Virus record (IMG/VR): IMGVR_UViG_3300034095_001474
Location: 64,001 to 128,000 of that record
Origin: a virus
Lineage: Duplodnaviria > Caudoviricetes
Length of the DNA: 64,000 nt
Reading direction: 5' to 3' (one strand)
The notes under the pieces are model-generated. The model was not told where the DNA came from. It ran no database searches and saw only the letters and a program-made list of their open reading frames with translations. Made by a program: the position numbers and the translations under genes. Of the stretch, positions 6,398 through 34,037 are shown one piece after another. Positions within the stretch are counted from its first letter, which is position 1. Every line of letters begins with the position of its first letter.

Positions 6398-6595
6398 TTA
6401 ATCAAATTTATATACATAAACGGTATCAACGGTCTTTCCGTCTGTTACCAACTTTATTTGTGGTTTTATGGGTTCGGATACTTCGAATGTATCATCGATA
6501 AATACATAATCAATAAGATTATACAATCCTACCATAAGCAATAAACCAAATGATACCAACCCCAAAATCAGTGCTGTTCCTATTCCTTCACCCAT
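6398..6595 (-). CDS. small membrane protein
   Basis: N-terminal TM, coupled to neighbours. Confidence 0.6.
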   Translation of the reverse strand: MGEGIGTALILGLVSFGLLLMVGLYNLIDYVFIDDTFEVSEPIKPQIKLVTDGKTVDTVYVYKFD

Positions 6596-6825
6596 TATTC
6601 TTTAGTTACGTTTCTGAACATTAAATAATGCACCAATAATGCGATAAAACTACCAGCAGCTGCAAAAGCACCTAAAAATATAAATATTCCATCTCCTTCA
6701 ACAGAATCTTGGATTATACTTGGCAATGAAGTCCAAAATGCAATATTAATAACTCCACTGAATATAAACCCACCTAAGTAGATTAAATTCTCTTTTCTCT
6801 TATTTACTTTAAATCTATCTTCCAT
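6595..6825 (-). CDS. small membrane protein
   Basis: two TM segments. Confidence 0.6.
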   Translation of the reverse strand: MEDRFKVNKRKENLIYLGGFIFSGVINIAFWTSLPSIIQDSVEGDGIFIFLGAFAAAGSFIALLVHYLMFRNVTKE

Positions 6826-9087: not shown

Positions 9088-9943
9088 CTTTTTTTGGTTT
9101 TTCTAGTTCAAATAAGAACTGTCCGCAGCTGGAACCTATGTCGTTCCCTGGTGGTTTATAATATTCTACAATTTTTCCTTCACTTCTTAACCATTTCATA
9201 TATTTTTCCAATTCTTCTTCATCAGCTTTTACTGCATCCAATGATTCTTTCTCAGAAAACATCATAAATTTAATTGTAGTATGTCCATCAATCCATTCAT
9301 TTAAGGAATCTATATGATAATCACTATCATTTACGTCTTTCATAATGGTATAATGCACTTCAATTGGGTTTCCAGTCAATGAACGATACAATTTTAACAT
9401 GTTCATTGATGATTCTAAGTCCAAAGCAGACGGCATCCACTCTTTTCTTTGCTCATCATCAACAAAATGCATTGATAAATGTACTTTCACTGGTAAATTC
9501 ATAGACTTAACTCGTTCAATCAATGTGAAAAACGCAGCATAGTGCTTTTTAGGTAGCATAGTTGCTAACCCAAACCTAATATTAGGTTCTTTTAACATAA
9601 CCATACTATCAATAACGTTGTTTATGTTAGCCAAAGCTTCACCACAACCCATATATGATATAAGAATAGTTCTATAACCCAACCTTAAATCACATATGAT
9701 GTATTCTATACCCTCCACTATGTCCTTGTAGTCCATATCTTTTGTTGGTATCTTACCAATATGGTCAGTCAAGTGGCAGAAGGTGCACTTCATGTTGCAC
9801 ATAGTCTGGCATGGAACACATATGATATCTTTATCAGTACCATTGTCAATGTATGAGAACTCCACCATTTGTCCATCTACATCAAATATAAATTTAATAG
9901 TAGCATCCTCATTAGATGCTACCTTTTTATTAAATGTTATCAT
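9065..9943 (-). CDS. RlmN/Cfr-like radical SAM RNA methyltransferase
   Basis: CQTMCNMKCTFC, MGCGEAL (cf. MGMGEPL), C-terminal SCGQF (cf. ACGQL). Confidence 0.8.
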   Translation of the reverse strand: MITFNKKVASNEDATIKFIFDVDGQMVEFSYIDNGTDKDIICVPCQTMCNMKCTFCHLTDHIGKIPTKDMDYKDIVEGIEYIICDLRLGYRTILISYMGCGEALANINNVIDSMVMLKEPNIRFGLATMLPKKHYAAFFTLIERVKSMNLPVKVHLSMHFVDDEQRKEWMPSALDLESSMNMLKLYRSLTGNPIEVHYTIMKDVNDSDYHIDSLNEWIDGHTTIKFMMFSEKESLDAVKADEEELEKYMKWLRSEGKIVEYYKPPGNDIGSSCGQFLFELEKPKKDEFNISK

Positions 9944-9946
9944 TGT

Positions 9947-10501
9947 TTAAAAGTTTTTAAAAACCTCAAATGATTTACCACTAGTGTCACCACCATAGTT
10001 ATCCACTTCTTCTCCGTCATAGAAGACACCAGATACTGTATCAGTAAAAGAGTAGTCACAAGCCACAATATCTGTATCAATAGTTATTTTTAATTTAGTT
10101 AAATCAAATTCTTCAGCCTCAAAATCACCCATGAAGAAACTACCTTTTTCTTGTGCAAGACTAACAAATAAATCTAAATCTTGGTTGATTTGTTCGTATA
10201 TATCTATAGACTCAACTAATTCAAATTCTTCTGTATCGTGGTCATACAAACCTTTTTCAGTAACTTCAAAAACTACATTACCATCCTCATCTTCAATAGT
10301 AATAGTATAACTGTCAGTCGCTCCCCATCTATGGTATTGATTATCAATTTCATGATAACCGCCATAATCGTCTAAATCTTCATTGGCAATATCAACCAAT
10401 TCTTTTTCTTCGTTATTAAGAATTTCTTTTTGTTCATCGGTTACTGAACCAATTGTAATCTCATGTCCATATCCTTGTATGGAAACTGTGTATTTTTTCA
10501 T
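9947..10501 (-). CDS. acidic hypothetical protein
   Basis: 184-aa ORF with own promoter. Confidence 0.75.
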   Translation of the reverse strand: MKKYTVSIQGYGHEITIGSVTDEQKEILNNEEKELVDIANEDLDDYGGYHEIDNQYHRWGATDSYTITIEDEDGNVVFEVTEKGLYDHDTEEFELVESIDIYEQINQDLDLFVSLAQEKGSFFMGDFEAEEFDLTKLKITIDTDIVACDYSFTDTVSGVFYDGEEVDNYGGDTSGKSFEVFKNF

Positions 10502-11790: not shown

Positions 11791-13746
11791 TTACAAACTA
11801 ATTAAACTCAAATTTATGTTCTTTTTCTCTATATCAACTGACGAAATAACTACATGTACCACGTCACCTAAACGTATGATATTCCCAGTGTTATGACCTT
11901 TTACTCTGTAGTTTTCAGCATCAGCAACATATGTATCACCAATGATTTCACTCAACCTTACAAGACCATCACAACCATTATCTTCCATAGTAATAAACAA
12001 ACCGTAATCAGTTACACTAGTAACCATACCCTTGAATATTTTACCCACCTTATCAGACATATAGATACATTGCATGTATTTGATACTATCTCTCTCAGCT
12101 TTTTGTGCTTTCTTCTCTCTTTCAGACAAGTGACCACACTTAGCATCTAGTTTTGCTATGTTAGGCAAAGATTTAGATGTACCATCTAAGTACATACCTA
12201 ACAATCTATGTACGATTACATCTGGATAACGTCTGATTGGACTAGTAAAGTGAGCATAGTTCTTGAACCCTAACCCATAGTGACCAATATTTTTGGTCAT
12301 GTAGTTAGCTTTTTGCATTGTACGTACAACCAAGTTGCTAATCATATCCTCTTCAGCGGTACCTCTAACATCCATTAGTAGTTTATTCAACGTACTTGTT
12401 GTTTCTTCTGGTGTACTTATCTTGATATCATAACCAAATTGTATTATAAAGTCTTTAAGTTGTTCTAACTTTTCTTCGTTAGGTTTCTCGTGTGCTCTGT
12501 TTACCATTGGAAACTGACGACTATTAACATATTGTGCAACATGTTTGTTTGCTAGCAGCATGTATTCCTCAATAAGTTTGTTAGAATCTTTACCAACCTT
12601 GAATATAATATCAACTGGTTTGTTATTTTTATCCAATTTGAACTTGATTTCATGTTTGTCGAATGATAAAGAACCTTTTTGTAAACGTACCTTACGCATT
12701 TTCTTAGCAATCTTATCAAGTGTTTTGATTGGTTGATGAAAAGGATATGCATATGCAACCTCTTCATGTGTTGATGTTGCTAGATATGGTATACCTAACA
12801 CATTTCCATGTTCTATTATGTTCTGTGCTTCTTCATATGTAAATCTCATATCAGAATTGATAACAGTTCTACCGAACCACTCATCCAACACATGACCATT
12901 GTGGTCAATTTTAAACACCACTGAGAAGCAAAGTTTATCTTCGTTAGGTCTTAGTGAACAAAGTCCGTTAGATAAGTTCTCTGGAAGCATAGGTACACAT
13001 CTATCTACAAGATAAACACTAGTTCCTCTACCATAAGCTTCTCTATCCAATTCTGTTTCTGGACGCAAATAATGTGATACATCAGCAATGTGAACACCAA
13101 CAAACAACTCACCGTTTACCCATTCAACACTCAGAGCATCATCGAAGTCTTTTGCATCATGTGGGTCAATAGTAAATGTAAGCACATTACGCATATCTCT
13201 ACGTTTTTCTATTTCTTCTTGAGTTATTTCAGTTGAGATTGCATCAGCTTCTGCGATTACATCTTCTGGGAAATCATATGGTAATCCATATTCTTCAAGG
13301 ATACTATGTATCTCTGTTTCGTGTTCACCAGCATCACCTATGATTCTAACTATTTTACCGTTAGGGTTCTTTGCGTTATCTTTCCAATCAGCCAATTGTG
13401 CAACAACCTTTTGTCCATGAGTTGCACCATTTAATTTATTCAAAGGAATAAAGAAATCGATTGCTAATTTGTTTGAGTCTGGGATAAAGAATGCAAACTT
13501 CTCGCTAATCTCAATTGTACCAACAAATTCTGTTCTGAATCGTTCGATTATCTCAATAACTTTACCTTCGATTGACCTTCCTTGTCCAGCAATTACCTCA
13601 ATTCTAACTGTGTCTAAATGTAACGCTTTGTTCGTTTTAGACTTATGTAAATAAATATCTTTTGGTAAGTCTACGCTAACCAAATATGCTGAACCACTTG
13701 CGTTCATACTTATTTTACCTTCTAATATGTCTCCTATTTTAATCAT
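11791..13746 (-). CDS. rnr: ribonuclease R
   Basis: TIDPHDAKDFDDA, HIADVSHY, HFTSPIRRYPD, C-terminal S1 domain. Confidence 0.95.
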   Translation of the reverse strand: MIKIGDILEGKISMNASGSAYLVSVDLPKDIYLHKSKTNKALHLDTVRIEVIAGQGRSIEGKVIEIIERFRTEFVGTIEISEKFAFFIPDSNKLAIDFFIPLNKLNGATHGQKVVAQLADWKDNAKNPNGKIVRIIGDAGEHETEIHSILEEYGLPYDFPEDVIAEADAISTEITQEEIEKRRDMRNVLTFTIDPHDAKDFDDALSVEWVNGELFVGVHIADVSHYLRPETELDREAYGRGTSVYLVDRCVPMLPENLSNGLCSLRPNEDKLCFSVVFKIDHNGHVLDEWFGRTVINSDMRFTYEEAQNIIEHGNVLGIPYLATSTHEEVAYAYPFHQPIKTLDKIAKKMRKVRLQKGSLSFDKHEIKFKLDKNNKPVDIIFKVGKDSNKLIEEYMLLANKHVAQYVNSRQFPMVNRAHEKPNEEKLEQLKDFIIQFGYDIKISTPEETTSTLNKLLMDVRGTAEEDMISNLVVRTMQKANYMTKNIGHYGLGFKNYAHFTSPIRRYPDVIVHRLLGMYLDGTSKSLPNIAKLDAKCGHLSEREKKAQKAERDSIKYMQCIYMSDKVGKIFKGMVTSVTDYGLFITMEDNGCDGLVRLSEIIGDTYVADAENYRVKGHNTGNIIRLGDVVHVVISSVDIEKKNINLSLISL

Positions 13747-15685: not shown

Positions 15686-15994
15686 CTAAACTCCACCACC
15701 AATTGCTATTGTATAATTACCAGTTGCTATCGAATTATAACCCATTGCAACGGAATAGTTTCCACTGGGTCTTATTCTTTTCATTTCAACATATGTTGAA
15801 ATATCAAAGATAGCCCATTCATGTATGTATTGGTTAATTAAATCCTCACCAACACCAAAAATGGTTTTTAAATCATCAACCAAATCATCATAAAATTGAA
15901 AACATTGATTTGAATAATCGTAGATAACATCAACGTTATTTTCTAACCTAGTATTATAATGCCTATTCAAAAAGTGAAAGACAATCTCTCTCAC
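15686..15994 (-). CDS. hypothetical protein with YadA-head-like repeats
   Basis: SGNYSVAMGYNSIATGNYTIAIG. Confidence 0.55.
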   Translation of the reverse strand: MREIVFHFLNRHYNTRLENNVDVIYDYSNQCFQFYDDLVDDLKTIFGVGEDLINQYIHEWAIFDISTYVEMKRIRPSGNYSVAMGYNSIATGNYTIAIGGGV

Positions 15995-16506
15995 TTTTTA
16001 GGTTTTGGTTTTAAAGTTACAGACATTTTCTTACCCTCTAATTTAGGTAAAGACTCTGCTGTTCCATGTTCCTCAACTTCCAAAATTAGTTTCAACAACA
16101 ATTCTTGTCCCTTGTCAACATGATTCATTTGACGACCTTTGAACTGCATACTTATTTTAACTTTGTGTCCTTTATCTAAAAACTCAATGATGTGTTTAAT
16201 ACGATACTCAACATCATTATCAGAAGTATTTGGTCCCAACTTAATCTCTTTTAATTCAGCTGATTTCACTTTGTTCTTTAATTTCTTCTTTTGTTCATAG
16301 AGAAACTTTTCATAGTTTACTATTTTACAAATAGGTGGTGTTGTTGTAGTATTCACACAAACCAAATCCATTTCATCGGCTTGGGCCATTTTCAACGCTT
16401 CAGTTGTTTTAACGATACCTTCTGGTAGTCTAACAGAGTATTCTCTAATTTCTTCGTTTATAAAGTGTTCTCTTTTGTTATTAAATTTTTTCATAAATGT
16501 ATTCAA
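15991..16506 (-). CDS. infC: translation initiation factor IF-3
   Basis: INEEIR..MDLVCV..PPICKIVNYEKFLYEQKKK; KEIKL..DVEY..GHKVKISMQFKGRQ. Confidence 0.93.
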   Translation of the reverse strand: MNTFMKKFNNKREHFINEEIREYSVRLPEGIVKTTEALKMAQADEMDLVCVNTTTTPPICKIVNYEKFLYEQKKKLKNKVKSAELKEIKLGPNTSDNDVEYRIKHIIEFLDKGHKVKISMQFKGRQMNHVDKGQELLLKLILEVEEHGTAESLPKLEGKKMSVTLKPKPKK

Positions 16507-16942
16507 CTAATTCATAAATATCATTAACTTGTTTTATATTGTATTTCTCACAAACAATATCCACGTTTCCTTTTCTCCAAAAACCTTCTGGACAAATAAC
16601 TACCATCTTTTCACTACTCGCATGCAAACCCAATTCCAATAAAGAGATTGGTGATTTTGTGTTAGGGTCAAATACCATAACAATTATATCAGCTACTTCC
16701 AATCCGTTGAGTTCCCATTCTACTTGTTCTCTAAACTGTGGGTTTGTTATTTCTTGAGTCCATGAAGAATCCCAATCACTACGTCTAGGATTTAAAAATG
16801 TAATCATTTCATCTTTTAATCTTTCGATTAAATCTTTTTGCCAATCTATGGCTTTACCCATTTCTATTGAACCACCTAAAAATATTTTAGTGTTGGTCTT
16901 AACGTTGGGTATTTCGTTAGGTGCTTGTATTTCAATTGCCAT
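16481..16942 (-). CDS. nucleoside 2-deoxyribosyltransferase-like protein
   Basis: IFLGGSI..FLNPRR..QVEWE..SPISLLELG. Confidence 0.85.
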   Translation of the reverse strand: MAIEIQAPNEIPNVKTNTKIFLGGSIEMGKAIDWQKDLIERLKDEMITFLNPRRSDWDSSWTQEITNPQFREQVEWELNGLEVADIIVMVFDPNTKSPISLLELGLHASSEKMVVICPEGFWRKGNVDIVCEKYNIKQVNDIYELVEYIYEKI

Positions 16943-17174
16943 TAATCAAATTTATTTTTTCTTTTCTTGTTAGTTTTTTAATTCTATATTCTTCTTTAGC
17001 AGCTGTGCTCTTATCAAAACCATCAAAAGAAGCTCGTAGAACAACTGGAAGACGAGTCTTCGAATACTTTGCCCCTTTGCCTTTATTGTGTGTTTCTATA
17101 CGCTTATTTACGTCTGTTGTTATACCAGTATATAAAGTTCCATCAGAACACTCTACTATATATACATACCACAT
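16932..17174 (-). CDS. small GIY-YIG nuclease
   Basis: WYVYIVECSDGTLYTGITTDVNKRIETHN. Confidence 0.88.
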   Translation of the reverse strand: MWYVYIVECSDGTLYTGITTDVNKRIETHNKGKGAKYSKTRLPVVLRASFDGFDKSTAAKEEYRIKKLTRKEKINLINGN

Positions 17175-17392
17175 TAAACCAAAGTTATTATAATTGACCC
17201 CCAATTCACGAAACCTTCGGAACAAACAAACCCATAATCATTTACGCAATCACGTACAATATTCTTCATTTGTTCTGAGTTCCCAGTAACAATTTCTATT
17301 TGCGGTATTTTTCTCAGCATGGCCTCCCAAATGAATCTATCGACTTCATTTGAAACATTCTCATGCTTAATTCCATGTAAATCTAGTTTCAT
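17174..17392 (-). CDS. Smr-like domain protein
   Basis: LDLHG and IVTG motifs. Confidence 0.7.
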   Translation of the reverse strand: MKLDLHGIKHENVSNEVDRFIWEAMLRKIPQIEIVTGNSEQMKNIVRDCVNDYGFVCSEGFVNWGSIIITLV

Positions 17393-18022: not shown

Positions 18023-18466
18023 TTATACATCTTCGTTTATTAATTTCATTTCTTTTAATATTCCTTCTATCTTCGCCCAATCAACAAATGGTCGGTTACT
18101 ATACACTGGATTAAAAATCAATGGACAACCCAACGCTGTATCATCTATCATAAATTGAGCATAACTTTTTGGTGATGATGTCCATAAATGTTGTGTTGGG
18201 TTCGATTGAATCCCATATAACGGTATATCATTTTCTTTAAACCAGTTAACAGCTTCAGTCAAATAAGTAACACCCTTGGTTACTATTTCAAAATGTTCAT
18301 TGAGTACATCATCAGAATCATTTCTCATAGTAAACAAGATAAGTTGGTGTCCGTTTTGTACCAATCTATTTAATACTCTTGCAGCACCAATATCTTTTCC
18401 AACTCTAGGAAAGTCATGTGTGGTACAAGTACCGTCAAAATCAATATTAAATGTTATCTTTTCCAT
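18023..18466 (-). CDS. HAD-like phosphatase
   Basis: IDFDGT, LFTMR, IDD. Confidence 0.75.
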   Translation of the reverse strand: MEKITFNIDFDGTCTTHDFPRVGKDIGAARVLNRLVQNGHQLILFTMRNDSDDVLNEHFEIVTKGVTYLTEAVNWFKENDIPLYGIQSNPTQHLWTSSPKSYAQFMIDDTALGCPLIFNPVYSNRPFVDWAKIEGILKEMKLINEDV

Positions 18467-18514
18467 ATTACAAATGTACAATTATTTTTTTATTAAAACA
18501 ATATCAAACATACT

Positions 18515-19294
18515 TTATTTTAATTTATTTTTTCCTTTTACCATATGTTTGCTACATTCTTCAAGCCATCCGTTTCTTAATGCAGAATTATATGATGATT
18601 TACTAATTTTAACCCAGTCATTGTATGAATTACATTTTAATGCAATTTCAAGGCTACGTTCTTTAGTCCAATATCCACGTGGTTTTACTAACTGCACCAT
18701 ATGAGTAGTTGCTTCTTCAAACCAACCATTTTTTCTAGCATTTGCACATGATGTTGAATTATTTTTTAACCATTCGGTCACAGTAGAAAATTGTTTTGCA
18801 TGTTCAATACAATTTTCTTTGTTCCAGTAACCCATAGGTTTTTGGTTTTCAACCATATGAGCAGCACATTCATCAATCCATCCGTTTTTTAATGCAGAAT
18901 TATAACATGGTTTGTTATTTCTTAAAAATTGAGTTCTCGTTTTATATTTCAGTGCTTCTTCTATACATTTTTCTTTATCCCAATACCCTCTAGGTTTGCG
19001 ACCTTTATCAATATGTGCTGTGCACTCAATAACCCAATCGTTATAATAAGCTATTTTATACGACATTTGATTAAATTCTCGCCATTCTTTAATTGAATTA
19101 TATTTAAGTGCTTCTTCTATACATTTTTCTTTGGACCAATACCCTTTTGGTTTTCTATTGGTTGGGGGAATTTTAAATTTCCAACCAAACATATCACAAA
19201 TTTCTTTTGTAAGTTTTAATCTTACAGCACGGTCATAAGCTTTAGGGTCATTTTTACCCCATTCAGTTAATGAATTATATTTACTTTTATACAT
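18515..19294 (-). CDS. tandem-repeat protein (4 x ~52 aa)
   Basis: repeat GYWxKExCxExAxKY...EW....Y..A..NGW.EEC..HM. Confidence 0.85.
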   Translation of the reverse strand: MYKSKYNSLTEWGKNDPKAYDRAVRLKLTKEICDMFGWKFKIPPTNRKPKGYWSKEKCIEEALKYNSIKEWREFNQMSYKIAYYNDWVIECTAHIDKGRKPRGYWDKEKCIEEALKYKTRTQFLRNNKPCYNSALKNGWIDECAAHMVENQKPMGYWNKENCIEHAKQFSTVTEWLKNNSTSCANARKNGWFEEATTHMVQLVKPRGYWTKERSLEIALKCNSYNDWVKISKSSYNSALRNGWLEECSKHMVKGKNKLK

Positions 19295-21362
19295 TATAAG
19301 ACATTTTTGTTGTTGTCTTTTTCATATGTGCACTGCATTCATCTAACCACCCATTTTTTCTAGCTTCTTTCATAGAACCATTACTTTTTTCTTGCCATTC
19401 AACTTTATTTTTATATTTTAAAGCTTCAGCTAAGACATGTTCTTTAACTTTCCAATAACCCATAGGTTTTCTATCTTGTTTCATATGTGCAATACACTCA
19501 TCATAACAACCTAAAGGTTTAGCTCTGGAGAACCCTTCACCCAATTCTCTCCATTCTTTAGGTGTGTTCCATTTTCTAGCTTCTGCAATTAATAGTTCTC
19601 TGGTCCAAGTACCATTAGGTCTAACTAAATAGACCATATGTGCTGTACATTCATCATGCCAACCGTTTTTCTTAGCTGATTTATATGAACTTGAACTATT
19701 TTTAGACCATTCACTTCTTGTTTTATATTTCAAAGCTTCAATCAAAACAGTTTCTTTTGAATCCCAATAACCTTTTTTGGTTGATAATTCCATATGTGCT
19801 GTACATTCATCATGCCAACCATTTCTACGTGAAACTTCTAATGAAGCACCTCCATTCAAACGCCAATCTTTTATGTTATTATATTTCAACGCTTCAACCA
19901 ACACATTTTCTTTTATTTGCCAATACCCCATAGGTTTTTGGTTTTCATCCATGTGTGCTGTACATTCATCATACCAACCATTTCTAATTGCTGATTTTTT
20001 AGCCGCAGAACTTTTTTTCTGCCATTCAGTTTTGCTTTTATATTTTAAAGCATCTTCTAAACATTTTTCTTTATCATTCCAATACATTGGTGGTTTTTTT
20101 AATAATTCCATATGTTCTAAACATTCATCTAACCACCCATTTGTTCTTGCAGCCCATACTGATTTTTCATCAGCTTTAACCCAATCTAATCTATTATCAT
20201 ATTTTTTAGCAATGGATAACACTTTTTCTTTGGTCCAAAAACCAGCTGGGGTGTGTCCTTCAGCATATTCCATATGAGCTATACATTCATCATACCAACC
20301 ATTTTGGTTAGCTGAATGATATGCACCAGACGAGTTTTTACTAAAATCACTTCTTGTTTTATATTTCAAAGCTTCAGTCAACACATTTTCTTTTATTTTC
20401 CAATGACCATTCCTAGCAGTTGAAAAAATCATATGACTTGTACATTTGTCTATTAAATTTTGCTTTTTCGCTGCTTGATAAGCTCCTTGTTCATCTTTAA
20501 GCCAATCACTATAATATTTGTATTTTTTAGCAGTTTCAAGTAATACTTCTTTGGTCCAATACCCAACTGGTTTATTAATTTCAATCATATGAGCTGTAGC
20601 CTCTTCAAACCAACCATTTTTTTTGGCTGAATTATATGAAGCACCATGAGAATTTGGTCCAGTACCCCATTCACTTCTTGTTTTATATTTAAATGCTTCA
20701 GCCAATACGTTTTCTTTAATTTGCCAATAACCAAGTTTTTTATAGTTTTCAACACCCATCTCTGCCAAACATTTAGCGTATAACCCTTCAATTTTAAAGG
20801 CCGTAGAATATGAAGTGGATGAATTATTTTTCCATTCTTTAGGGTTATTATATTTTTTTGATTCTTCAAAAATTGTTTCAGCGTTCCAATAACCAGCTGG
20901 TTTAGCCTTAATATAACCCATTTCATCTGTACATTTATCATATAATCCTTCAATTTTAAAAGACATAGAATATGAAGTTGATGAACCCTTTTTCCATTCA
21001 GTAGGTGTTTTATATTTTTTTGATTCTTCAAAAATTGTTTCAGCATTCCAGTAACCATTTGGTTTAATTAAAAAGCTCATATGAGCTGTTGCTTCCTCAA
21101 ACCAACCATATTTACGAGCAGCAGCATAAGCTGTTGCATTATTTTTAGTCCATTCAGTAGGTGTTTTATATTTCAACGCATCACATAATACGTTTTCTTT
21201 AATTTGCCAGTAGCCATTTCGGTGTAATTTAGTTTTTTCTTTTGGTAAATCCCAACCAAAAATTTCACAAATATCTGGTATAATACCAGATTTTTTAGCT
21301 GATTGATAAGCACTAGGATTACTTTTACACCATTCTGCTATCGATTTATACTTGCTGTCCAT
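19287..21362 (-). CDS. tandem-repeat protein (12 x ~52-55 aa)
   Basis: same repeat as 18515-19294; 12 full units plus a partial N-terminal unit. Confidence 0.88.
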   Translation of the reverse strand: MDSKYKSIAEWCKSNPSAYQSAKKSGIIPDICEIFGWDLPKEKTKLHRNGYWQIKENVLCDALKYKTPTEWTKNNATAYAAARKYGWFEEATAHMSFLIKPNGYWNAETIFEESKKYKTPTEWKKGSSTSYSMSFKIEGLYDKCTDEMGYIKAKPAGYWNAETIFEESKKYNNPKEWKNNSSTSYSTAFKIEGLYAKCLAEMGVENYKKLGYWQIKENVLAEAFKYKTRSEWGTGPNSHGASYNSAKKNGWFEEATAHMIEINKPVGYWTKEVLLETAKKYKYYSDWLKDEQGAYQAAKKQNLIDKCTSHMIFSTARNGHWKIKENVLTEALKYKTRSDFSKNSSGAYHSANQNGWYDECIAHMEYAEGHTPAGFWTKEKVLSIAKKYDNRLDWVKADEKSVWAARTNGWLDECLEHMELLKKPPMYWNDKEKCLEDALKYKSKTEWQKKSSAAKKSAIRNGWYDECTAHMDENQKPMGYWQIKENVLVEALKYNNIKDWRLNGGASLEVSRRNGWHDECTAHMELSTKKGYWDSKETVLIEALKYKTRSEWSKNSSSSYKSAKKNGWHDECTAHMVYLVRPNGTWTRELLIAEARKWNTPKEWRELGEGFSRAKPLGCYDECIAHMKQDRKPMGYWKVKEHVLAEALKYKNKVEWQEKSNGSMKEARKNGWLDECSAHMKKTTTKMSYNV

Positions 21363-22860
21363 CTCTTATTGTTAAATATTCTTCTAAACTAACTCCCATT
21401 GCTGATGCAAAAATTTTATCATCAGTCCATGTTAAAACTCTACCATGACCTAACATTTTTTTAACGTCATTGATTGTTGTCATCTTATAGATACTAACTG
21501 GATTACTTAAATTATGTAATATATCTTTGAACAAATCAATAACGTCAAAAGTAAATTCTGGTAATATATTCTGATTTTTTTTATTGCTACTACCACTAGA
21601 AGTACCACCACTTCCAGTACTGGTTCTTTTACCTTTGATAACTGGAATCTCTAAATTATTAAAGTTTTTACCATCAAATAATAACAAATAATTTTTGTCA
21701 GTTAACATTAGAGCACCACACATAGATAAATGTGTCAAAGACATGTTGTGTAATTCTTTTGGTGTAAGTTTCAAATAGAATTTTTGAGTTTCTGGTCCAC
21801 CTCTAAGTACTCGACTAAACATTTGATAGATAACATCTGGGTTATGTGTTCCAGACATATCTATAATATTCATCAAATTAACATCATTGTAACCTAATTT
21901 ACCTCTGTTAACAACAACCAATACATCATACATGTTGTTTTTAAATTCAGTTATTATATCCCCATTTACATCACATTCAGAATGTGATACAGCAGAATTA
22001 ACACCCATTTCTAAAAGGATTTTGTTAACCATTTCAGCTTGTTCTTGTCGTTTACAAACAATCATTGTTTTACCTATAGTTTTATAAGTAAAAGCCCAAG
22101 TTTTTATTTTTGTTAAAAATGAAGGATGATTAAATTGTTCGGCTTTTAACCCGTATTTAATCCTAGCCATTAATTTTTCCATAACAACTTCTAAAGTTGA
22201 TTTGGTATCATCGTAGGTGAATCTAAACTTTTTAGTCACCTCATTATTAGAATCGTAGAAACCACTCCATTTATAATCAGATGCAACCAATTCAACATTT
22301 AATTTTGCAAACCATTCAGAACTAATTTCGTTTGATGCAATTACATATATATCAAATAACGGTTCAATATTTGGTTTATTCTCTCTTTTGTTTTTAGCTA
22401 CATGTTCTTTATTTTTAAGAATAAATTTAGATGGTGTTCCAGTAAGTAATAACTGTTTTGATGGTTTTACTTTATCGATAATTCTTTGAACACGTGGTGC
22501 TAAATAATTCTCATGTGCTTCATCAATTACAACAAAATCATAATGACCTTTTATTTTATGTTCGATATTAGGTAAACATAAATGCACTTGTACGTTTTCA
22601 TCTAAATTTGTTGAGTAAGTAAATGATACTTTAATCTCTTTTAACCTATCAACAAAGTTATCCAACAACACATTCGTTGAATGGGTTAAGATTAAAACTT
22701 TAGCTTTTGTAAAAAGTTTTAAATACTTTTCAACAACATCTATTGTTATTTCTGTTTTACCACCACCTGGAGCAATTGCTAAAACACATTTTTTAGACCC
22801 CAACACATAATTAGATGCTGGTTCTTGATAATCCCTTAATATTAACGTTCTTTTATTCAT
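21346..22860 (-). CDS. superfamily 2 (DExH) helicase
   Basis: APGGGKT, VIDEAH, LTGT, QMFSRVLR. Confidence 0.88.
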   Translation of the reverse strand: MNKRTLILRDYQEPASNYVLGSKKCVLAIAPGGGKTEITIDVVEKYLKLFTKAKVLILTHSTNVLLDNFVDRLKEIKVSFTYSTNLDENVQVHLCLPNIEHKIKGHYDFVVIDEAHENYLAPRVQRIIDKVKPSKQLLLTGTPSKFILKNKEHVAKNKRENKPNIEPLFDIYVIASNEISSEWFAKLNVELVASDYKWSGFYDSNNEVTKKFRFTYDDTKSTLEVVMEKLMARIKYGLKAEQFNHPSFLTKIKTWAFTYKTIGKTMIVCKRQEQAEMVNKILLEMGVNSAVSHSECDVNGDIITEFKNNMYDVLVVVNRGKLGYNDVNLMNIIDMSGTHNPDVIYQMFSRVLRGGPETQKFYLKLTPKELHNMSLTHLSMCGALMLTDKNYLLLFDGKNFNNLEIPVIKGKRTSTGSGGTSSGSSNKKNQNILPEFTFDVIDLFKDILHNLSNPVSIYKMTTINDVKKMLGHGRVLTWTDDKIFASAMGVSLEEYLTIRDGQQV

Positions 22861-22907
22861 AATTTTTTATTTATAATACAAAGGTATATATTATTTTTTA
22901 ATAAACC

Positions 22908-22942
22908 AAAAAAAATCCGATAAATTATCGGATTTTTTTTTT
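22908..22942. terminator. intrinsic terminator
   Basis: AAAAATCCGATAA/TTATCGGATTTTT. Confidence 0.75.
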
Positions 22943-24506
22943 ATTTGAACGTAGTGTACTCACCATTTTGAAAATTTATATGTTGGGCTCTACCATCTTC
23001 ATGTATTATAACATGTGATTGTAACCATGAACTTGGTCCTATATTGTAACCTACACGTAGTTTTGTAGATGTACCTACTGCTAATCCACCATCTTTTCTT
23101 CCAGGTGAGTGATAATGTCCTACTACACATTTAGTATTTAGTTTTCTAAACTGTAACAATGACCCACGACTTCCGTTAGCACCAACATCACCATGTTGTC
23201 CCAACTCCCAATCTTTAACTTTGAATGAAGTACTTCTATCCAACGTTGTCATCTTAGGGAAATTCTTCTCAATCAAATAAGGAATTATACCTTTAGGTGC
23301 ATCACCTTTCAAAATAGCATGTGAATATTCAATATACTCCAACGCATTTTTGATGTTCTTCTTCCAATCATTGTTAATAAGCCATCTATCGATAAAGTCA
23401 TCGTGGTTACTTCTAACGATAGTTACGTTGTATTTCTCAACTTTCTTCAACCACTCCAACATGTTTTCAACCTCACGTTTTACAGAGTTTGTACCATCTT
23501 GTTCTCTACGATATAATTGGAACGCATCTTTTGATTCGTGGTGACTAATAGAATGACCATCAAATACATCATGCAATACAACGTTTGCTGGTTTTAAGTT
23601 CTTTAACAACACATTAAGAGTTACATCAATAACTTCATCATCATGATGACCTAAGTGTAAATCACCCAACACAACTGCTGCAATTGTTTTTACTCTAGAA
23701 ACGTTACCTTTGGATACATTATGATACAAATCAGTAAACTCACCAGTTTTGTCATCAGCTGTTACTTGTCTGATAAAGAAAACTTCATCATCTTTAATCT
23801 CAACGATACAAAATCCGAATGTGTGGTGAAAATCACCTACCTTTCCAGACTTTGAATCAGTATAATTCTTTTCTGTAATCGAACCAGTGGTAAGCATTAT
23901 TTTAGGTACGTTACCATCTAGTACTGGAATCATTTCCATTTGTACTTTAGGTGCACCGAAAATACATGAATTCATACCACTTAAAGCATTCATACCAGTC
24001 ATTGGATTAACCGCAGTAGGTTGTACCTTGATATCACTCATGATACTAACGTATTTGTGTATGTCATGTCTGTTCGCATCCAAGTATTTTAAGATACTTT
24101 GGTCCCAAAATTCATTGTCTTCTTGCTCTGTAGTCCATGTACTAGTAGGGTTTTTGTATCTACCAGCGATAACATGTACAGATGCATTGATATATTCAGC
24201 GTATGCCTCTATGTTTTTAAGTAATCCAGAGTTAACTGGTGTGTTGTTTTGAGCCCATGTAACGATAAAACGCTTTTTATTGGTATCAAACTCCTTATTT
24301 TGAGCTAAAGTATATTGTTCTGGTACAACTTCATCTCTTTCTTTAAGTTTTAGCTTCTCTGAAACCCATTTTCTAATGGTTCTTTGTGTTACACCGAACT
24401 CAACAGCTAAATTATCAGCCCTTTTATCCCAAGATGTATTACCTTTGTCATTATAAACAGCAGTAATGTAATCTATTTGCAATTCTGTTAACTTTTTAAA
24501 CTTCAT
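22941..24506 (-). CDS. HTH plus metallophosphoesterase-fold protein (T5 A1-like)
   Basis: N-terminal HTH, FIVTWAQNNT, GDLH, HDVFDG, SNHD, HGD, GHYHSP. Confidence 0.65.
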   Translation of the reverse strand: MKFKKLTELQIDYITAVYNDKGNTSWDKRADNLAVEFGVTQRTIRKWVSEKLKLKERDEVVPEQYTLAQNKEFDTNKKRFIVTWAQNNTPVNSGLLKNIEAYAEYINASVHVIAGRYKNPTSTWTTEQEDNEFWDQSILKYLDANRHDIHKYVSIMSDIKVQPTAVNPMTGMNALSGMNSCIFGAPKVQMEMIPVLDGNVPKIMLTTGSITEKNYTDSKSGKVGDFHHTFGFCIVEIKDDEVFFIRQVTADDKTGEFTDLYHNVSKGNVSRVKTIAAVVLGDLHLGHHDDEVIDVTLNVLLKNLKPANVVLHDVFDGHSISHHESKDAFQLYRREQDGTNSVKREVENMLEWLKKVEKYNVTIVRSNHDDFIDRWLINNDWKKNIKNALEYIEYSHAILKGDAPKGIIPYLIEKNFPKMTTLDRSTSFKVKDWELGQHGDVGANGSRGSLLQFRKLNTKCVVGHYHSPGRKDGGLAVGTSTKLRVGYNIGPSSWLQSHVIIHEDGRAQHINFQNGEYTTFK

Positions 24507-24534: not shown

Positions 24535-25071
24535 TTATATTGAAGGATACAACTTTGAAAGTGTTTTTTTCATCTTTATTTTACTTCTAAGTAGGTTTGT
24601 CTTAGATGAACTAACACTAATACCCAAAATTTTAGCTATTTCTTGATGGGATTTCTCTTCCAAGTAATACAAAGTAACAACTTTCTTATATTGAGGTGAT
24701 AAACTATCAATCAAAGTGGATATGTCGTTTATGAATATATCATAAAACGATTCTTGTTCATAATAATTAAACAAACCATCATGTATTTCAACCATGTTTA
24801 TATTCTTTTTCTTTCTATATAAGTCTATAGTTCTATTTTTAACGATTACTCGCATCCAAGCCTCTAGACTAGCTGTAGTGTTACCATTAAATCTATATAT
24901 GTTTTCATATATACTAATAAATGATTCTTGTACTAGGTCTTGCACATCGCTACCACCGTTAGAATATTTGTAAGCAACACTTAACATCTTTTGATAAAAG
25001 AGTTTATGTAACATATATTGAGCTCTAGAGTTGTTATCTTTGCAACCTTGAACAATTTTATCCAGTTCCAT
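24535..25071 (-). CDS. ECF-type sigma-70 factor
   Basis: DVQDLVQESF..EAWMRVIVKN; region 4 SHQEIAKILGISVSSSKTNLLR. Confidence 0.9.
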   Translation of the reverse strand: MELDKIVQGCKDNNSRAQYMLHKLFYQKMLSVAYKYSNGGSDVQDLVQESFISIYENIYRFNGNTTASLEAWMRVIVKNRTIDLYRKKKNINMVEIHDGLFNYYEQESFYDIFINDISTLIDSLSPQYKKVVTLYYLEEKSHQEIAKILGISVSSSKTNLLRSKIKMKKTLSKLYPSI

Positions 25072-25085
25072 TATTTTGTTTTTAG

Positions 25086-25328
25086 TTACCAACTACCAAC
25101 ATCAGTCAAATCCAATTTAGTACCATCAGCACATTTAACCACTTCTATCACACCTAAACCAGTAGGTGTGAAACAGAATGTGTATGCACCACCAATAGCA
25201 CCAACATTAACTTCACCCTTTGCCTTGTTCTTTTCAATACGCCATGTATCGAATTTTTTCATTTGCTCTGCTGTTAGAGTAAATGTACGGTCTTCATAGA
25301 CCTTTTCTTTTTTATCGCTCACTATCAA
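25086..25328 (-). CDS. hypothetical protein
   Basis: ORF with GAIGGAYTFCFTPTGLG. Confidence 0.65.
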   Translation of the reverse strand: MIVSDKKEKVYEDRTFTLTAEQMKKFDTWRIEKNKAKGEVNVGAIGGAYTFCFTPTGLGVIEVVKCADGTKLDLTDVGSW

Positions 25329-25436: not shown

Positions 25437-26483
25437 TCATACTGTTTCTAATTTTTTACCTTTTAATACTTCGTAACTCAAATTATTATTGATAGCGGCA
25501 ATTGCCAAACCAATTTGTTCTGCAACACTAATAACAATTGTTTTTTCACAACCTTTGATAATGTTATAACATTTTGTTTCATTAAATTCTTTATTACATA
25601 ACTCATTAGCAGTCTTCAATGCTAATGAATCACTAATAATAAGCGATTCTAATTTGCTTTCACCAATTCGTTCCATCGCTGGACCAGACAATACACCATG
25701 ACTGATTATTGCTCTAACTGATTTAGCACCAGCATCTTTCAACACTTCAGCAGCTTTACACAATGTTCCAGCTGTATCAACCATGTCATCCAAGATGATA
25801 ACGTGTTTATCTTTAACATCACCGATTATAACCATTTCATCAATTACATTGGCTTTGCTACGAGTTTTGTCTAACATAACATAATTAAGATTGATATTGT
25901 GTCTTTTCATCAATTGGTCTTTCATACGTTTTACACGTTTACCAGAACCAGCATCTGGTCCACATAAAATTGTTTCACCATCAAAAAATTTAGTCATTTC
26001 AGCTATGTGTTTATCAAACACGTTTTTACCTTCGATGTGTGTTAGTGGTATGTTGAAGAATCCTTGTATTTGGTCAGCATGTAAATCAAATGTAATTACA
26101 GATGTTGAACCACGATGTTCTAGCATTTCAGCTATAATTTTAGCACCGATTGGTCCTCTACTTTGGTCTTTCTTATCTTGACGAGCATAAGGAAAATATG
26201 GTAAAATCGGTATGATTTCTTTAGCCGCACCACGTTTAGCTGCATCTATTGCTAAATTCAATTTCATTATTTCATCAGAGTTATTTGGACTTGATAAAAT
26301 ATAAACACGTTTACCTCTAACCGAATCAGTAAAATCAACACATAACTCTCCATCAGAGAATTTTTGAGTTCTTAATTTACCCAACCCTAATTCTTCGTCA
26401 CGCATAAGAATATTTGTTTCTTCTAAAATAGCGTTTGTTAGTTCATCTCCAACATTTAATGAGAATAATAATGAATTATACAT
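25437..26483 (-). CDS. prs: ribose-phosphate pyrophosphokinase (or ADPR-PP synthetase homolog)
   Basis: FSDGE, PYFPYARQDKK, DLHADQIQGFF, PDAG, LDDMVDTAGT. Confidence 0.93.
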   Translation of the reverse strand: MYNSLLFSLNVGDELTNAILEETNILMRDEELGLGKLRTQKFSDGELCVDFTDSVRGKRVYILSSPNNSDEIMKLNLAIDAAKRGAAKEIIPILPYFPYARQDKKDQSRGPIGAKIIAEMLEHRGSTSVITFDLHADQIQGFFNIPLTHIEGKNVFDKHIAEMTKFFDGETILCGPDAGSGKRVKRMKDQLMKRHNINLNYVMLDKTRSKANVIDEMVIIGDVKDKHVIILDDMVDTAGTLCKAAEVLKDAGAKSVRAIISHGVLSGPAMERIGESKLESLIISDSLALKTANELCNKEFNETKCYNIIKGCEKTIVISVAEQIGLAIAAINNNLSYEVLKGKKLETV

Positions 26484-30554: not shown

Positions 30555-31006
30555 GGTACGTATTGAACAATCGTTACATACTCACCAATCATTTCATCCT
30601 CAATGATTTTCTCAATGATATCCCAATCACCACCAGCCAAACCAGCACCAATCATTGGCAATCCAAATGTTTTACCAGAGAACTTTTCTTTCATTTCTTT
30701 CAAACCAGAACGCAAAGCATCATAGTCTAAATCCATATTACCACTACGTCTACCTTTGGTATCGTATTGTGAATAAATGTTTACAATTGTTGGTTTACTG
30801 TAAACAGTATGAGAAATAGTCCCCATCTTTGATTCATCACCAGCAACTGTCTCACAGTCAGCTTCAAATGCTTCTGGAAACGCATTTTTAATTTGTGGTG
30901 CGATACCAGCACCCATAGCACAGAAACAGTTACAACCATGTGCTATTACATCGAATTTCCCTTCTTTGGCCATTTTCACTAAATCGCCTTCTACATATCT
31001 AATCAT
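30551..31006 (-). CDS. macro domain (ADP-ribose binding/hydrolase) protein
   Basis: HGCNCFCAMGAGIA, PMIGAGLAGGDW. Confidence 0.9.
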   Translation of the reverse strand: MIRYVEGDLVKMAKEGKFDVIAHGCNCFCAMGAGIAPQIKNAFPEAFEADCETVAGDESKMGTISHTVYSKPTIVNIYSQYDTKGRRSGNMDLDYDALRSGLKEMKEKFSGKTFGLPMIGAGLAGGDWDIIEKIIEDEMIGEYVTIVQYVP

Positions 31007-32622
31007 TATACTAATTGTTTATTTAATGTTATTATTCTTGCTCTATAACGTATATCTTCAAATGGTGTTTCAGTTAATAGTTTACCATTTTCAAAAACTG
31101 TTCTTAATTCATCACGTGATTCAACATACGTATCTTCCAATGATGTCACAGTGTAGTATTTACCAGTTGTATAGTGTTTAACCAATTTCAAACGACCTTG
31201 TTTAGATTTTTTGAATGATGGTTTCAAATCTCCATTCTCATCAACCTCTGTTGGTGATTTAACCAAATCACGGTGTTCACCATTTACTACTGCGAAACAT
31301 GCTTTTGTTGCAAAGTTTTGTGTATCTCTGTTGATATCAGCTTGTAACAATTTACCACCCATACCAAACACAATGTTTTCAGCAGAAATACCCAAAGAAG
31401 TCAACTCTTCGTAAATTTCAATAATTGAATTGATGTTTACACCATCACCTTGAATTACACGTACTTGTGGAGGTAAAACTTTGAAACCTTTATCGTTTAC
31501 GGTGTAACCAAATTTGTCAAACAAGATTGCAAACACTTCTTTTAATGTGTTGATAACGTGACCAGAATCTGGACGGATAACTAGTTGATTACCTGGAGTT
31601 GCTGGACGAGATAAAATCAAATCACGTAACTCAGTTCCCCATTTCTCAGAACATGCACGCAAGATATGGTAAGAGTCAGATACACACGCTACAATACCAG
31701 TAGGATATTGTTCCAACACACGTTTCATCATTTCAACTTCACCTTCTTCACCTTTCATAGTCATGATAGAGTGTTCAGTTGCTGGAACTGATTTACCAAA
31801 TACTGTGTTGGTATTGTAGTATTCACATATGCGTTTAGATGCAACAGTTGTATCAGAACCCATAAAGTTAATCAAGTGTGCTGAACCACCAATACCAGCT
31901 GATTGAACAGAAGATACACCTCTGAAACCGAAATCATTCAATACGAACTCAACAGCTACTCTCATGATATCTCCAGGCAACGAAACTGTTTTGTCGTAAT
32001 ATTCAGTAACGATTTTCTTAACTTCACGTGACAATGTTGCCACAGTGATTGGATACCACAATTGCATCATGATAGTTTCTAAGAAGTTTGTTAACCAATA
32101 ACAATTAGGGTCAGTGTTCTCAATAGTCATAAGAACGTTTTTAACACCTACAACTGTACCCTCTGGTACTGCTTTGATACGTACTGGTAATTTACCACCA
32201 TGAACATCGATAATGTATTGGAATTTAGATTTGTCAAAGACATCATCACGACCAAACACACCAAGTTCAGTACCCAAGTACTCATATGCTTCATCTAATT
32301 CTTCTTGTGTGAAGGCAACACCCTCTAAATATTCTTTGATGAACATTTCAAGACCATACCATACTGTTTCACTGAAACGACCACCACGTGATTCCATGTA
32401 TGAATAAACAGTTGTTGTGTTTTCTTCATAGAATTTGTGGTGCGAGTACTTATAAGCATCACCCATAAGTACAAGATTGTTAGGTTTATCCATTGCTTTT
32501 GAGATAAGACCTTCCAATGTTTCGATTGAAGACCAATCTTTATTTTTGATTGCCTCTGCCAATCTAGTTTTAATCACTTCTTTAAGTGCTAAACTTTTTA
32601 AATTTTTATTTTCTGATTCCAT
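31006..32622 (-). CDS. nadV: nicotinamide phosphoribosyltransferase (NAMPT)
   Basis: DAYKYSH, DFGFRG, PATEHS, VSDSY, RPDSG, IQGDG, FGMGGKLLQ. Confidence 0.93.
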   Translation of the reverse strand: MESENKNLKSLALKEVIKTRLAEAIKNKDWSSIETLEGLISKAMDKPNNLVLMGDAYKYSHHKFYEENTTTVYSYMESRGGRFSETVWYGLEMFIKEYLEGVAFTQEELDEAYEYLGTELGVFGRDDVFDKSKFQYIIDVHGGKLPVRIKAVPEGTVVGVKNVLMTIENTDPNCYWLTNFLETIMMQLWYPITVATLSREVKKIVTEYYDKTVSLPGDIMRVAVEFVLNDFGFRGVSSVQSAGIGGSAHLINFMGSDTTVASKRICEYYNTNTVFGKSVPATEHSIMTMKGEEGEVEMMKRVLEQYPTGIVACVSDSYHILRACSEKWGTELRDLILSRPATPGNQLVIRPDSGHVINTLKEVFAILFDKFGYTVNDKGFKVLPPQVRVIQGDGVNINSIIEIYEELTSLGISAENIVFGMGGKLLQADINRDTQNFATKACFAVVNGEHRDLVKSPTEVDENGDLKPSFKKSKQGRLKLVKHYTTGKYYTVTSLEDTYVESRDELRTVFENGKLLTETPFEDIRYRARIITLNKQLV

Positions 32623-32623
32623 A

Positions 32624-32962
32624 CTATTTTGTATTTATTATTATTGTGGGTTTCCCTAATTTTTCAGCTTTTGTTATGCTATCTTTAGTCCCTTTACTTT
32701 CACCATCCCAAAATGCTATGATAGTATCAGCGTTGTTAACGATATAGGTATTTCTCAATACTCCAGCTGCTGCACCATGTTTTTTCCAATCTGGTTTAAA
32801 TATAAGTGTTTCGATATTATTCTCTTTGGCATATCTTTCACCCAATGAGTCAGCACCATTCGCACCACCACTAACCAATAATTTTATTTGAAATGGTGAT
32901 AATGTGGTTTTAACCAATTCATAGTCATCAAAACCTCTGCTACCAATTACTGCTACTTTCAT
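32624..32962 (-). CDS. SLOG-family protein (DUF2493-like)
   Basis: AVIGSR, VSGGANGAD, AGVLRN, FWDGESKGT. Confidence 0.82.
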   Translation of the reverse strand: MKVAVIGSRGFDDYELVKTTLSPFQIKLLVSGGANGADSLGERYAKENNIETLIFKPDWKKHGAAAGVLRNTYIVNNADTIIAFWDGESKGTKDSITKAEKLGKPTIIINTK

Positions 32963-33960
32963 GAGATACTTTCTCCATATTTAACTTTAGCGTTTTCAAT
33001 AGCTGTTGGTATTTTAGCATTTTCCAATATGTTATTTTTAGACAAATAAACACACAAGTTAGCATACAAGTCTCTATGTTCAACCATGATGTCTTTATCA
33101 ACGTTGATATTCTTAGGTTCAACCCAATGCAATGAAGCGATATCATCAGATGGTTCAATACGTCCCCATAAGAACTTACCAATAAACAATGTTGTCATGA
33201 TACCAGATTCTGTTTTACCATATCTCCAATCAGTAACAGCACCACTGCAAACATATTTAATATCATCGATTTCAGCGTTACCACCAGTTTCTTCTTTAAA
33301 CTCACGTTTTGCTGCTTCTTCCCAAGTCAAATCAGTTCTATCAACGAAACCACCGATAAAACGGTAGAAGTCTTCATTTGGTTTTTTAGCCAAAAGGATT
33401 TGTCCTTTATCGTTGTATACTGTAATATCTACTGTTGGATATGTAACTGGTCTAGCAGCATATGTTGCGTGGATTACACCAGCTCTAAAGTCCTCAGAAG
33501 CCAAGATTTCTTTTGATACTTGTTTACGAACTTCAGTACCAGAATACAATATATCAGTTATCAATTCAACAACAGCATATTTTCCAGAATAGTAAGGAAT
33601 AAATGAATCACGACTACCATATAATACTGCACTCAAAGAGCTGCGTTCACCAAAAGGTACTTGGATTTGGTTGTCTAACTCTCTTGACCATTTTTCGTTA
33701 GACCTTTGGTCTTTCAATGGTAATACAATCACATTTGGATAAGATTGTTTAATCATCGCTTCTCTAGATGCATAATCCAATGGATTTGATTTTGTGTTTC
33801 CAATAACTGGTACACCCAAGAAAATAACTACTTTTTTATGATTTTCAATAACCTTATCAATAAGACTGATTTGCCCTTCATGCAATTTATGCACTTGGAA
33901 TCTTGCTACAATAACACCGATTTCGTAATCAGTTGGATTGATATTTGATTTAACTTCCAT
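32959..33960 (-). CDS. bifunctional NMN adenylyltransferase / Nudix hydrolase (NadM-like)
   Basis: ARFQ..KLHEGQ, SGTEVR, GGFVD..AAKREFKEETG. Confidence 0.9.
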   Translation of the reverse strand: MEVKSNINPTDYEIGVIVARFQVHKLHEGQISLIDKVIENHKKVVIFLGVPVIGNTKSNPLDYASREAMIKQSYPNVIVLPLKDQRSNEKWSRELDNQIQVPFGERSSLSAVLYGSRDSFIPYYSGKYAVVELITDILYSGTEVRKQVSKEILASEDFRAGVIHATYAARPVTYPTVDITVYNDKGQILLAKKPNEDFYRFIGGFVDRTDLTWEEAAKREFKEETGGNAEIDDIKYVCSGAVTDWRYGKTESGIMTTLFIGKFLWGRIEPSDDIASLHWVEPKNINVDKDIMVEHRDLYANLCVYLSKNNILENAKIPTAIENAKVKYGESIS

Positions 33961-33993
33961 ATTTATCTTTTTTTATTTATAATACAAATGTAT

Positions 33994-34034
33994 AAAAAAA
34001 TTCCCAATAAAACAAATTATTGGGAATCTTTTTT
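33994..34034. terminator. intrinsic terminator
   Basis: TTCCCAATAA/TTATTGGGAA with flanking A/T tracts. Confidence 0.65.
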
Positions 34035-34037
34035 GAT

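Follow-up and report, generated by a model that had tools for sequence, protein, structure and literature searches.

What does a phage do with a helicase gene that runs directly into two genes built from tandem copies of a single ~53-amino-acid (aa) repeat? We examined this question in a stretch of 64,000 nucleotides (nt) from IMG/VR virus record IMGVR_UViG_3300034095_001474 (Caudoviricetes), referred to here as the window, which has ~31% GC, is part of a large phage genome and carries all its genes on the minus strand. The three genes, hereafter the helicase-array cassette, follow one another on that strand in the order helicase, array A and array B. We consider it probable, with some reserve, that these three phage genes form an operon that encodes a superfamily 2 (SF2) DNA helicase/translocase directed to specific sites, in which the arrays would act as address subunits. 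The three proteins are the following.

21346 to 22860, minus strand: SF2 helicase of 504 aa (Pfam ResIII and Helicase_C)
19287 to 21362, minus strand: array protein A of 691 aa, with a head module (21252-21353) and 12 units (19290-21215)
18515 to 19294, minus strand: array protein B of 259 aa, with a head module (19181-19282) and 4 units (18518-19144)

Linkage of the helicase to the arrays

We scanned 6 IMG/VR loci, 63 metagenome loci and several long contigs with a profile hidden Markov model (HMM) of the repeat unit. A locus was considered informative when 600 bp or more followed the helicase homologue (n=55; helicases 37–92% identical), and in 51 of these 55 the units were found immediately downstream on the same strand or within the helicase open reading frame (ORF) itself. 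The downstream units were distributed over 1–5 ORFs with 2–22 units, and at some loci arrays were also located upstream. The backbones of the phages that carry the cassette were different: one was T4-like with Gp23, and others were relatives of the window phage. Among the helicase homologues listed, 8 out of 120 had C-terminal units (7 of the 8 with 2–5 units), and freshwater loci combined the helicase with 4–10 units in a single ORF. We also surveyed the partners of the unit in 139 newly returned proteins among the 150 best-scoring unit-bearing cluster representatives; all six proteins with a long N-terminal extension in this set were ResIII/Helicase_C proteins, 28–35% identical to the window helicase.

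An earlier interpretation of this DNA, made from its letters and ORFs (the sequence-only reading), had hinged on linkage of helicase and repeats in other genomes, which thus extends from the 51 of 55 loci to fusions as distant as 28% identity. Because of this linkage and of the in-frame fusions, the association is not a matter of chance, and the sequences strongly support a functional coupling of helicase and arrays. The arrays might instead be decaying remnants of homing endonucleases that lie beside the helicase by chance, with no functional link; the commonest context of the unit is indeed that of homing-type GIY-YIG genes, elements that integrate between the genes of a phage and subsequently decay. 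We regard this explanation as extremely improbable, given the linkage over 37–92% helicase identity and different backbones, the existence of in-frame fusions, ORFs that are intact and under purifying selection, and a head module specific to the helicase-linked arrays (75/80; see below). A version of it in which one clone spread recently is excluded by the 28–92% identity range.

The repeat unit and its variation

Delimited at the G-Y-W anchor, the units were ~53 aa long (51–57 aa). The sequence-only reading had counted 12 and 4 repeats plus a common partial module, and both the G-Y-W splitting and the unit HMM returned the same composition, with 13 modules in array A, 5 in array B and none elsewhere in the window. 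We aligned 146 units from many proteins and found a fixed scaffold consisting of W7, E10, A16, K18, Y19, W25, Y33, A36, N39-G40-W41, E44, H48 and M49, of which W7, E10, W41, H48 and M49 were near-invariant. Positions 23, 26, 28–31, 34, 35 and 37, together with the linker (positions 50–53), had the highest entropy, in agreement with the earlier description of a fixed scaffold with variable positions. The unit has no Pfam or NCBIfam model; the only family match of the repeat was that of array A to PHROG 20046, whose function is unassigned (1.5e-139). Both arrays were basic (pI 9.1–9.5).

It had also been proposed that no nuclease is attached to the repeats and that repeats 2 and 3 of the 691-aa protein are a recent duplicate, and both proposals held. 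The arrays had no match in Pfam (E <= 0.1) or NCBIfam, and the units tile both proteins end to end, with the GIY-YIG domain absent. Units A2 and A3 (20733-21056) were 70% identical in protein and 79% in DNA (20724-20885 versus 20886-21047), and they represent a recent duplication, since this identity is well above that of all other unit pairs (27–62% in protein).

Orthologues of array B with 98%, 89% and 69% identity retained the variable positions and unit-specific residues. Array content, on the other hand, differed in number, size and position among phages with helicases 78–92% identical to that of the window, and unit number shifted freely between close relatives; the cassette as a whole was conserved with the helicase. 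Judged from these sequences, each array is under purifying selection, since the 89%-identical array B orthologues keep their unit-specific residues, and the array set changes by duplication, loss and rearrangement.

Two other interpretations of the unit were rejected. The Cys and His positions do not support a zinc finger as a general feature, since many units, among them the majority in array A, have other residues in place of C12 and C45. Finally, Pfam 'matches' in relatives (Insulin, UL128, SERRATE, etc.) were compositional artefacts.

A proposed unit split between helicase and arrays

The helicase ends in what resembles a part of a unit, and both arrays begin with a partial unit.

21394 to 21429, minus strand: helicase 'tail' WTDDKIFASAMG, resembling helix 1 of the repeat unit (consensus ending WTxExIxASAxG)
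21252 to 21353, minus strand: head module of array A (KYKSIAEW...ICEIFGW), a unit without helix 1, from profile comparison

The partial head module (~35 aa), which is common to the starts of arrays A and B, has its own ending, IC..FGW. We compared it with the unit profile using hhalign, and head residues 1–39 aligned to unit positions 14–52 with a probability of 99% (E 4.9e-18). The family consensus of the unfused helicases ends in WTxExIxASAxG. In one natural fusion (P0164) the tail and head were contiguous and scored together as one full unit (31.7 bits, E 2e-11); in other fusions the helicase continued straight into full units. The proposal that the helicase ends in a degenerate unit was thus upheld in part: only the first helix is recognisable (E 0.0036, probability 9%), and the fusions agree with it.

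The head was located at the start of 75 out of 80 non-redundant free-standing arrays adjoining helicases and in none of the 21 nuclease- or NUMOD-bearing relatives that we checked. At the loci with fused helicases we saw no free head-bearing arrays. Since the tail resembles helix 1 and the head matches helices 2–4, and the two are joined as one unit in fusions, the sequences suggest that an array docks by completing a unit that is divided between it and the helicase. A predicted complex of helicase residues 425–504 with residues 1–102 of array B, both given as alignments, scored 0.26 against a mark of 0.32 and had no controls, and it counts neither way.

In a relative with a 92%-identical helicase (L076), we also found a 108-aa protein (9847-10173) in which a head precedes a charged tail of coiled-coil-like character, with no units. 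It could be a competitor or an adaptor for the proposed docking site.

The helicase motor

The features of the helicase are listed below.

22750 to 22773, minus strand: motif I, read from the sequence, as are the next three
22507 to 22524, minus strand: DEAH
22432 to 22443, minus strand: TGTP
21799 to 21825, minus strand: motif VI
21568 to 21633, minus strand: low-complexity linker, rich in Gly, Ser and Lys, that joins the helicase core to the C-terminal region, read from the sequence and poorly conserved in the consensus
21448 to 21564, minus strand: conserved small C-terminal region (LPEFT..DVID.FKNI.HNL.NPVSIYK.TTI), from the consensus of 32 homologues, with no fold assigned

The helicase matched Pfam ResIII with 55.9 bits (cut-off 22.5) and Helicase_C with 36.7 bits (cut-off 23.5). 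Motifs I (GxGKT), II (DEAH), III (TGTP) and VI (QxxxRxxRG) were intact in the window helicase and invariant in 32 homologues. The conserved C-terminal region was also present in the fused forms, just ahead of the first unit. The profile of the helicase family found its best relatives in the PDB in RadD (7e-8) and XPBII (5e-6), and the helicase as a single sequence had no match there. Based on its motifs and domains, the protein resembles the XPB/RadD/ResIII-type helicases and appears to be an active-looking motor of this type. In contrast to XPB and RadD, to which it is only distantly related (E 7e-8 at best), the C-terminal region of the window family ends in a unit helix or in a full array.

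We found no match of the helicase in GenBank phages by tblastn, nor in IMG/VR when we searched with the single sequence. The representative genomes of 185,579 species contained one match, on a 4.1-kb contig in a Cytophagales metagenome-assembled genome, and metagenomes contained hundreds of homologues. In the PADLOC scan the helicase showed generic helicase-core similarity only (best PbeA, E 8e-10, residues 4–134), and the arrays had no match.

In its working logic the proposed system comes closest to UL9 (see below) and to Type I restriction, in which an SF2 ResIII-type motor (HsdR) is addressed by separate, variable and sometimes multiple specificity proteins (HsdS), but it belongs to neither family. 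In contrast, the cassette has no nuclease domain, methyltransferase or HsdS fold and is found on lytic-type phage contigs. The helicase scored 27.1 bits against the NCBIfam EcoAI HsdR model (cut-off 550), and no methyltransferase or HsdS was found nearby.

A second comparison is with UL9 of herpesviruses, an SF2 helicase with a single C-terminal DNA-binding domain, which is essential and conserved. The combination of an SF2 helicase with a sequence-specific DNA-binding part is the design of UL9, and the cassette lies amid early, DNA-metabolism-type genes, so that the arrays might bring the helicase to repeats of the phage replication origin. We consider an origin recogniser quite unlikely. The nearest cultured relatives replicate without the cassette, the array set differs between phages with 78–92% helicase identity, which is unexpected for an origin-initiator pair, and we saw no iteron-like DNA repeats in the window beyond the promoter family and the coding repeats. 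Unlike UL9, the cassette is accessory, and its multi-unit arrays change fast and are encoded on separate polypeptides.

Nuclease partners of the unit in other proteins

The search of 1.84 billion cluster representatives with the unit profile returned 9,326 proteins at E <= 0.001 (clusters at 50% identity), with up to 17 units each. Approximately 100 of the 139 surveyed representatives contained one embedded non-unit stretch of ~90–100 aa, which was a GIY-YIG domain in the 3 out of 3 proteins that we sampled. Relatives from the first search likewise had units on both sides of an internal GIY-YIG domain, typically 3 + 3. The unit also occurred together with a Vsr-like nuclease domain (MTES_1575) and with an I-HmuI NUMOD-like module. 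According to tblastn, the repeat was present in up to 10–11 places per genome in KVP40-like Vibrio phages (Schizotequatrovirus), and also in 'GIY-YIG nuclease' genes of Rhizobium phages and in BcepSauron. Vibrio phage PVA23 had two adjacent repeat genes with GIY-YIG matches. Since its usual partner is an embedded GIY-YIG nuclease domain, the unit is, as far as sequence comparison goes, most likely a DNA-binding module of the homing-endonuclease type.

The GIY-YIG homing-type phage proteins (Vibrio phage PVA23 genes 4 and 5; Rhizobium phage RHph_TM3_3_9) thus have the same ~53-aa repeat scaffold as the window arrays, in tandem arrays of 4–17 units. They differ in that they embed GIY-YIG and are headless, whereas the window arrays are nuclease-free, begin with the head and are tied to a helicase. 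A similar principle is known in the T5orf172 homing endonucleases, which have repeated CapR/DUF723/DUF4379 DNA-binding domains arranged as 'beads on a string' (Barth, Nguyen and Seed 2023, PMC10448857). Repeats of the CapR type steer a homing-type nuclease, and their number changes by recombination; CapR itself is a nuclease-free satellite repressor and therefore a precedent for the co-option of the DNA-binding part (PMC10448857). The T5orf172/CapR system and the family described here would have in common the independently folded bead repeats that steer a homing-type nuclease. However, the CapR, DUF723 and DUF4379 domains are zinc fingers, in the unit the Cys is often replaced, and the partner in the cassette is a helicase and not a nuclease or a repressor. 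Neither the window proteins nor 40 relatives matched DUF723 (PF05265) at E <= 1, and the comparison of the unit profile with a DUF723 protein by hhalign gave E 0.33. The DUF723 search in Vibrio phage PVA23 found no match and is uninformative, as the control genomes were equally silent.

An alternative is that the units bind RNA or protein, and that the cassette sends an RNA helicase to transcripts or recruits a host factor. The DEAH-type SF2 enzymes include RNA helicases, the case for DNA binding by the units is indirect and their fold is without a characterised relative. We nevertheless judge this alternative to have little chance of being correct, because the best solved relatives of the helicase profile, RadD and XPBII, are DNA enzymes, and, the helicase aside, the unit is in every case paired with a DNA nuclease or a NUMOD DNA-binding module.

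In a T4-like cassette carrier (L081), DUF723/DUF4379 proteins are encoded no more than 7 kb from the cassette, as are three GIY-YIG genes (1-785 and 5727-6617). Based on these genes, the cassette of this phage lies in a region dense in homing-endonuclease-type genes.

Predicted structure of the arrays

Structure prediction of the repeats, which had been proposed as a check, produced helical unit beads but no significant PDB match. In the AlphaFold model of array B, with a predicted local distance difference test score (pLDDT) of 84 and a predicted template-modelling score (pTM) of 0.34, confident helical beads were connected by low-confidence linkers. Each unit comprised four short helices, and the same four were obtained in a single-unit model from the 146-row alignment. 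As modelled, the array would consist of small four-helix beads on flexible linkers and not of a TALE-like solenoid. TALE proteins and the arrays share a tandem organisation with a fixed scaffold and a variable patch, but in contrast to TALE the model predicts beads and not a superhelix, and variation extends over at least 9 positions instead of two residues. The recognition helix and 'reprogrammable' code of the sequence-only reading, a code of one base per repeat, and a role in phage competition or counter-defence are conjectural.

The whole array B model returned nothing below E 0.49 from the PDB, and the single-unit model had no PDB match by Foldseek. In the ESM Atlas, the single-unit model was placed near viral clusters rich in GIY-YIG, DUF723 and NUMOD1, with a template-modelling score (TM) by query of 0.73–0.86. 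Atlas clusters with DUF723 in 92–100% of their members matched with TM 0.73–0.81 over 51–56 residues, although parts outside DUF723 may account for the match and short helical domains readily give one. We took this match as resemblance and not as membership, because the sequence profiles show no relation to DUF723.

Beads on flexible linkers would also suit arrays that provide non-specific DNA avidity, i.e. a tether or an aid to processivity in which more beads bind more tightly. The basic character of the arrays and the freedom with which unit number changes between close relatives are consistent with it as well. This possibility appears unlikely to us: the units of one array are 27–62% identical and differ at defined surface-type positions, the variable positions are kept in 89%-identical orthologues, the module is common to GIY-YIG homing-type nucleases, which need site selection, and the phages hold 2–5 different arrays and not one long array.

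Proposed mechanism

In the operon that we propose, the helicase would supply the motor and the nuclease-free arrays would be its detachable address subunits. The head of an array (helices 2–4) and the tail of the helicase (helix 1) would complete one unit in trans, and either array could dock in this way on the same motor, which would then be taken to different DNA sites. We infer both the sequence specificity and the physical docking of the arrays. The cassette may have a role in host takeover, in the control of recombination or in inter-phage conflict; such roles are compatible with its position among early and auxiliary genes and with a reader module that it shares with selfish nucleases. 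A bolder version seems rather unlikely, namely a multi-address motor into which interchangeable arrays plug via the split unit, as part of a large family of DNA-reading modules that are carried on a nuclease or a helicase and used in phage-phage and phage-host conflict.

Several points weigh against the proposed operon. At no fewer than two loci (L044 and L049) the helicase had no array within reach. As for docking, the alignment of the tail to the unit (positions 4–21) is weak alone, and a gene that broke apart within a unit could have left head and tail as relics, in which case they would be no docking device. L076 is irregular, with a helicase that has its own head in cis, a headless 373-aa array and the head-only protein, so the split-unit rule is not universal. 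As for DNA recognition, the case that the units bind DNA is indirect and comes from the nucleases that share the unit and from the basic character of the arrays. The best match of the single-unit model in a wide VIA-align search of the PDB had a Z of 2.9, which is not significant, and the sole match of the unit profile to PDB sequences, a designed repeat protein, was spurious, so that no PDB relative was obtained. Finally, the cassette was not found in the nearest cultured phages (Panino and elemo phages), and it is for this reason an accessory element.

If the proposal is correct, a steering module has been placed stably on a helicase motor instead of a nuclease across many phage lineages, and its attachment takes the form of a fusion or, as it seems, of a split-domain plug. 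If, in addition, each unit reads a few base pairs predictably, the array would be a new modular DNA-recognition scaffold with a use in engineering. The survey also defines a large domain family (9,326 clusters) that has no Pfam or NCBIfam model. We found no description of the helicase-array cassette in the literature that we searched. Steering repeats of homing nucleases and one nuclease-free co-option (CapR) were already known, and the helicase partner would be the addition to them.

Gene layout and promoters

The cassette is bounded by the following elements.

22908 to 22940, minus strand: hairpin terminator-like element (15-bp stem, then a T run) that closes the upstream A1-like gene
22879 to 22910, minus strand: promoter-like element (-33 TTTG, 20-nt spacer, -7 TACCTTTG), ~20 nt 5' of the helicase ATG
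18468 to 18507, minus strand: next promoter-like element (TACATTTGTAA), belonging to the HAD-like gene downstream and closing off the three-gene unit

The helicase and array A genes overlap by 17 nt, and those of arrays A and B by 8 nt. The next promoter copy after that of the helicase was found only past array B. The ORFs, the terminator and the promoter copies therefore agree with the sequence-only reading of three overlapping genes behind one promoter. Contigs from four independent lake-water studies spanned both gene junctions with zero indels, and the split into separate genes is thus not an assembly error. Lake-water metagenomes from 12 or more studies contained near-identical cassette DNA, and none of the data sets listed as containing it was an RNA one. 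Megablast of the cassette region against phages gave no match. We did not trust contig joints inside the repeats (e.g. a 973-nt skip with sides of only 20–25 nt).

A programmed frameshift, by which array A in the +1 frame would be joined to the helicase, was considered and rejected as a conserved mechanism. No slippery run is evident; the frame of array A has stop codons 2 and 4 codons ahead of the ATG; the geometry of the junction varies in relatives (an overlap of 17 nt or of 8 nt in some, a gap of 2 nt in others); and at least 10 relatives retain a helicase of ~504 aa. Because of these features, a conserved frameshift fusion is unlikely.

The promoter-like elements belong to a dispersed intergenic repeat of 50–70 nt. 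The window contains over 15 copies of it, each located 5' of a minus-strand gene (e.g. 22872-22941, 18456-18507, 33970-34047, 49811-49880, 54774-54843 and 57066-57135). Its core on the coding strand is TTTG-(about 20 nt)-TAnnTTTGTA. TAnnTTTG is the -7 consensus of Bacteroidota, and on this motif the repeat looks like the phage's own promoter family of the Bacteroidota type.

Neighbouring genes in the window

The neighbours of the cassette are early and auxiliary or DNA-metabolism-type genes. Directly upstream lies a T5 A1-like 'DNA transfer'/metallophosphoesterase protein (22941-24506, minus strand; PHROG 1745, E 6.5e-151), whose nearest cultured relatives, with 46% identity, are in Maribacter and Flavobacterium phages. 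Its adjacency to the cassette is kept in the close relatives L014 and L076 and is not found in other cassette carriers. An auxiliary metabolism block on the minus strand (25437-26483, 31006-32622 and 32959-33960) encodes PRPP synthetase, nicotinamide phosphoribosyltransferase and an NMNAT/NUDIX fusion (NAD salvage). The window also contains two sigma factors (24535-25092 and 2417-3283) and genes of nucleotide metabolism.

On the other side of the cassette, a small Smr-domain gene overlaps a gene for a 97-aa stand-alone GIY-YIG protein of the URI type (16932-17392, minus strand). This pair is kept in L003 and L076, and its absence from the cassette carriers of the T4-like kind places it outside the cassette. 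A 651-aa protein (11791-13746, minus strand) strongly matched PHROG 13933, annotated as 'nuclease' (E 1.6e-152). The 171-aa ORF at 15991-16506 (minus strand) has a counterpart in L076 (12557-13060) with the Pfam domains IF3_N and IF3_C; on this evidence it would be a phage-encoded homologue of translation initiation factor 3. Finally, we identified 21 tRNA genes (41258-43328 and 52808-60657). Among bacterial-type tRNAs a wobble A is unusual, and three of those in the window are predicted to have one (Gly-ACC at 41637, Thr-AGT at 41713 and Tyr-ATA at 52808).

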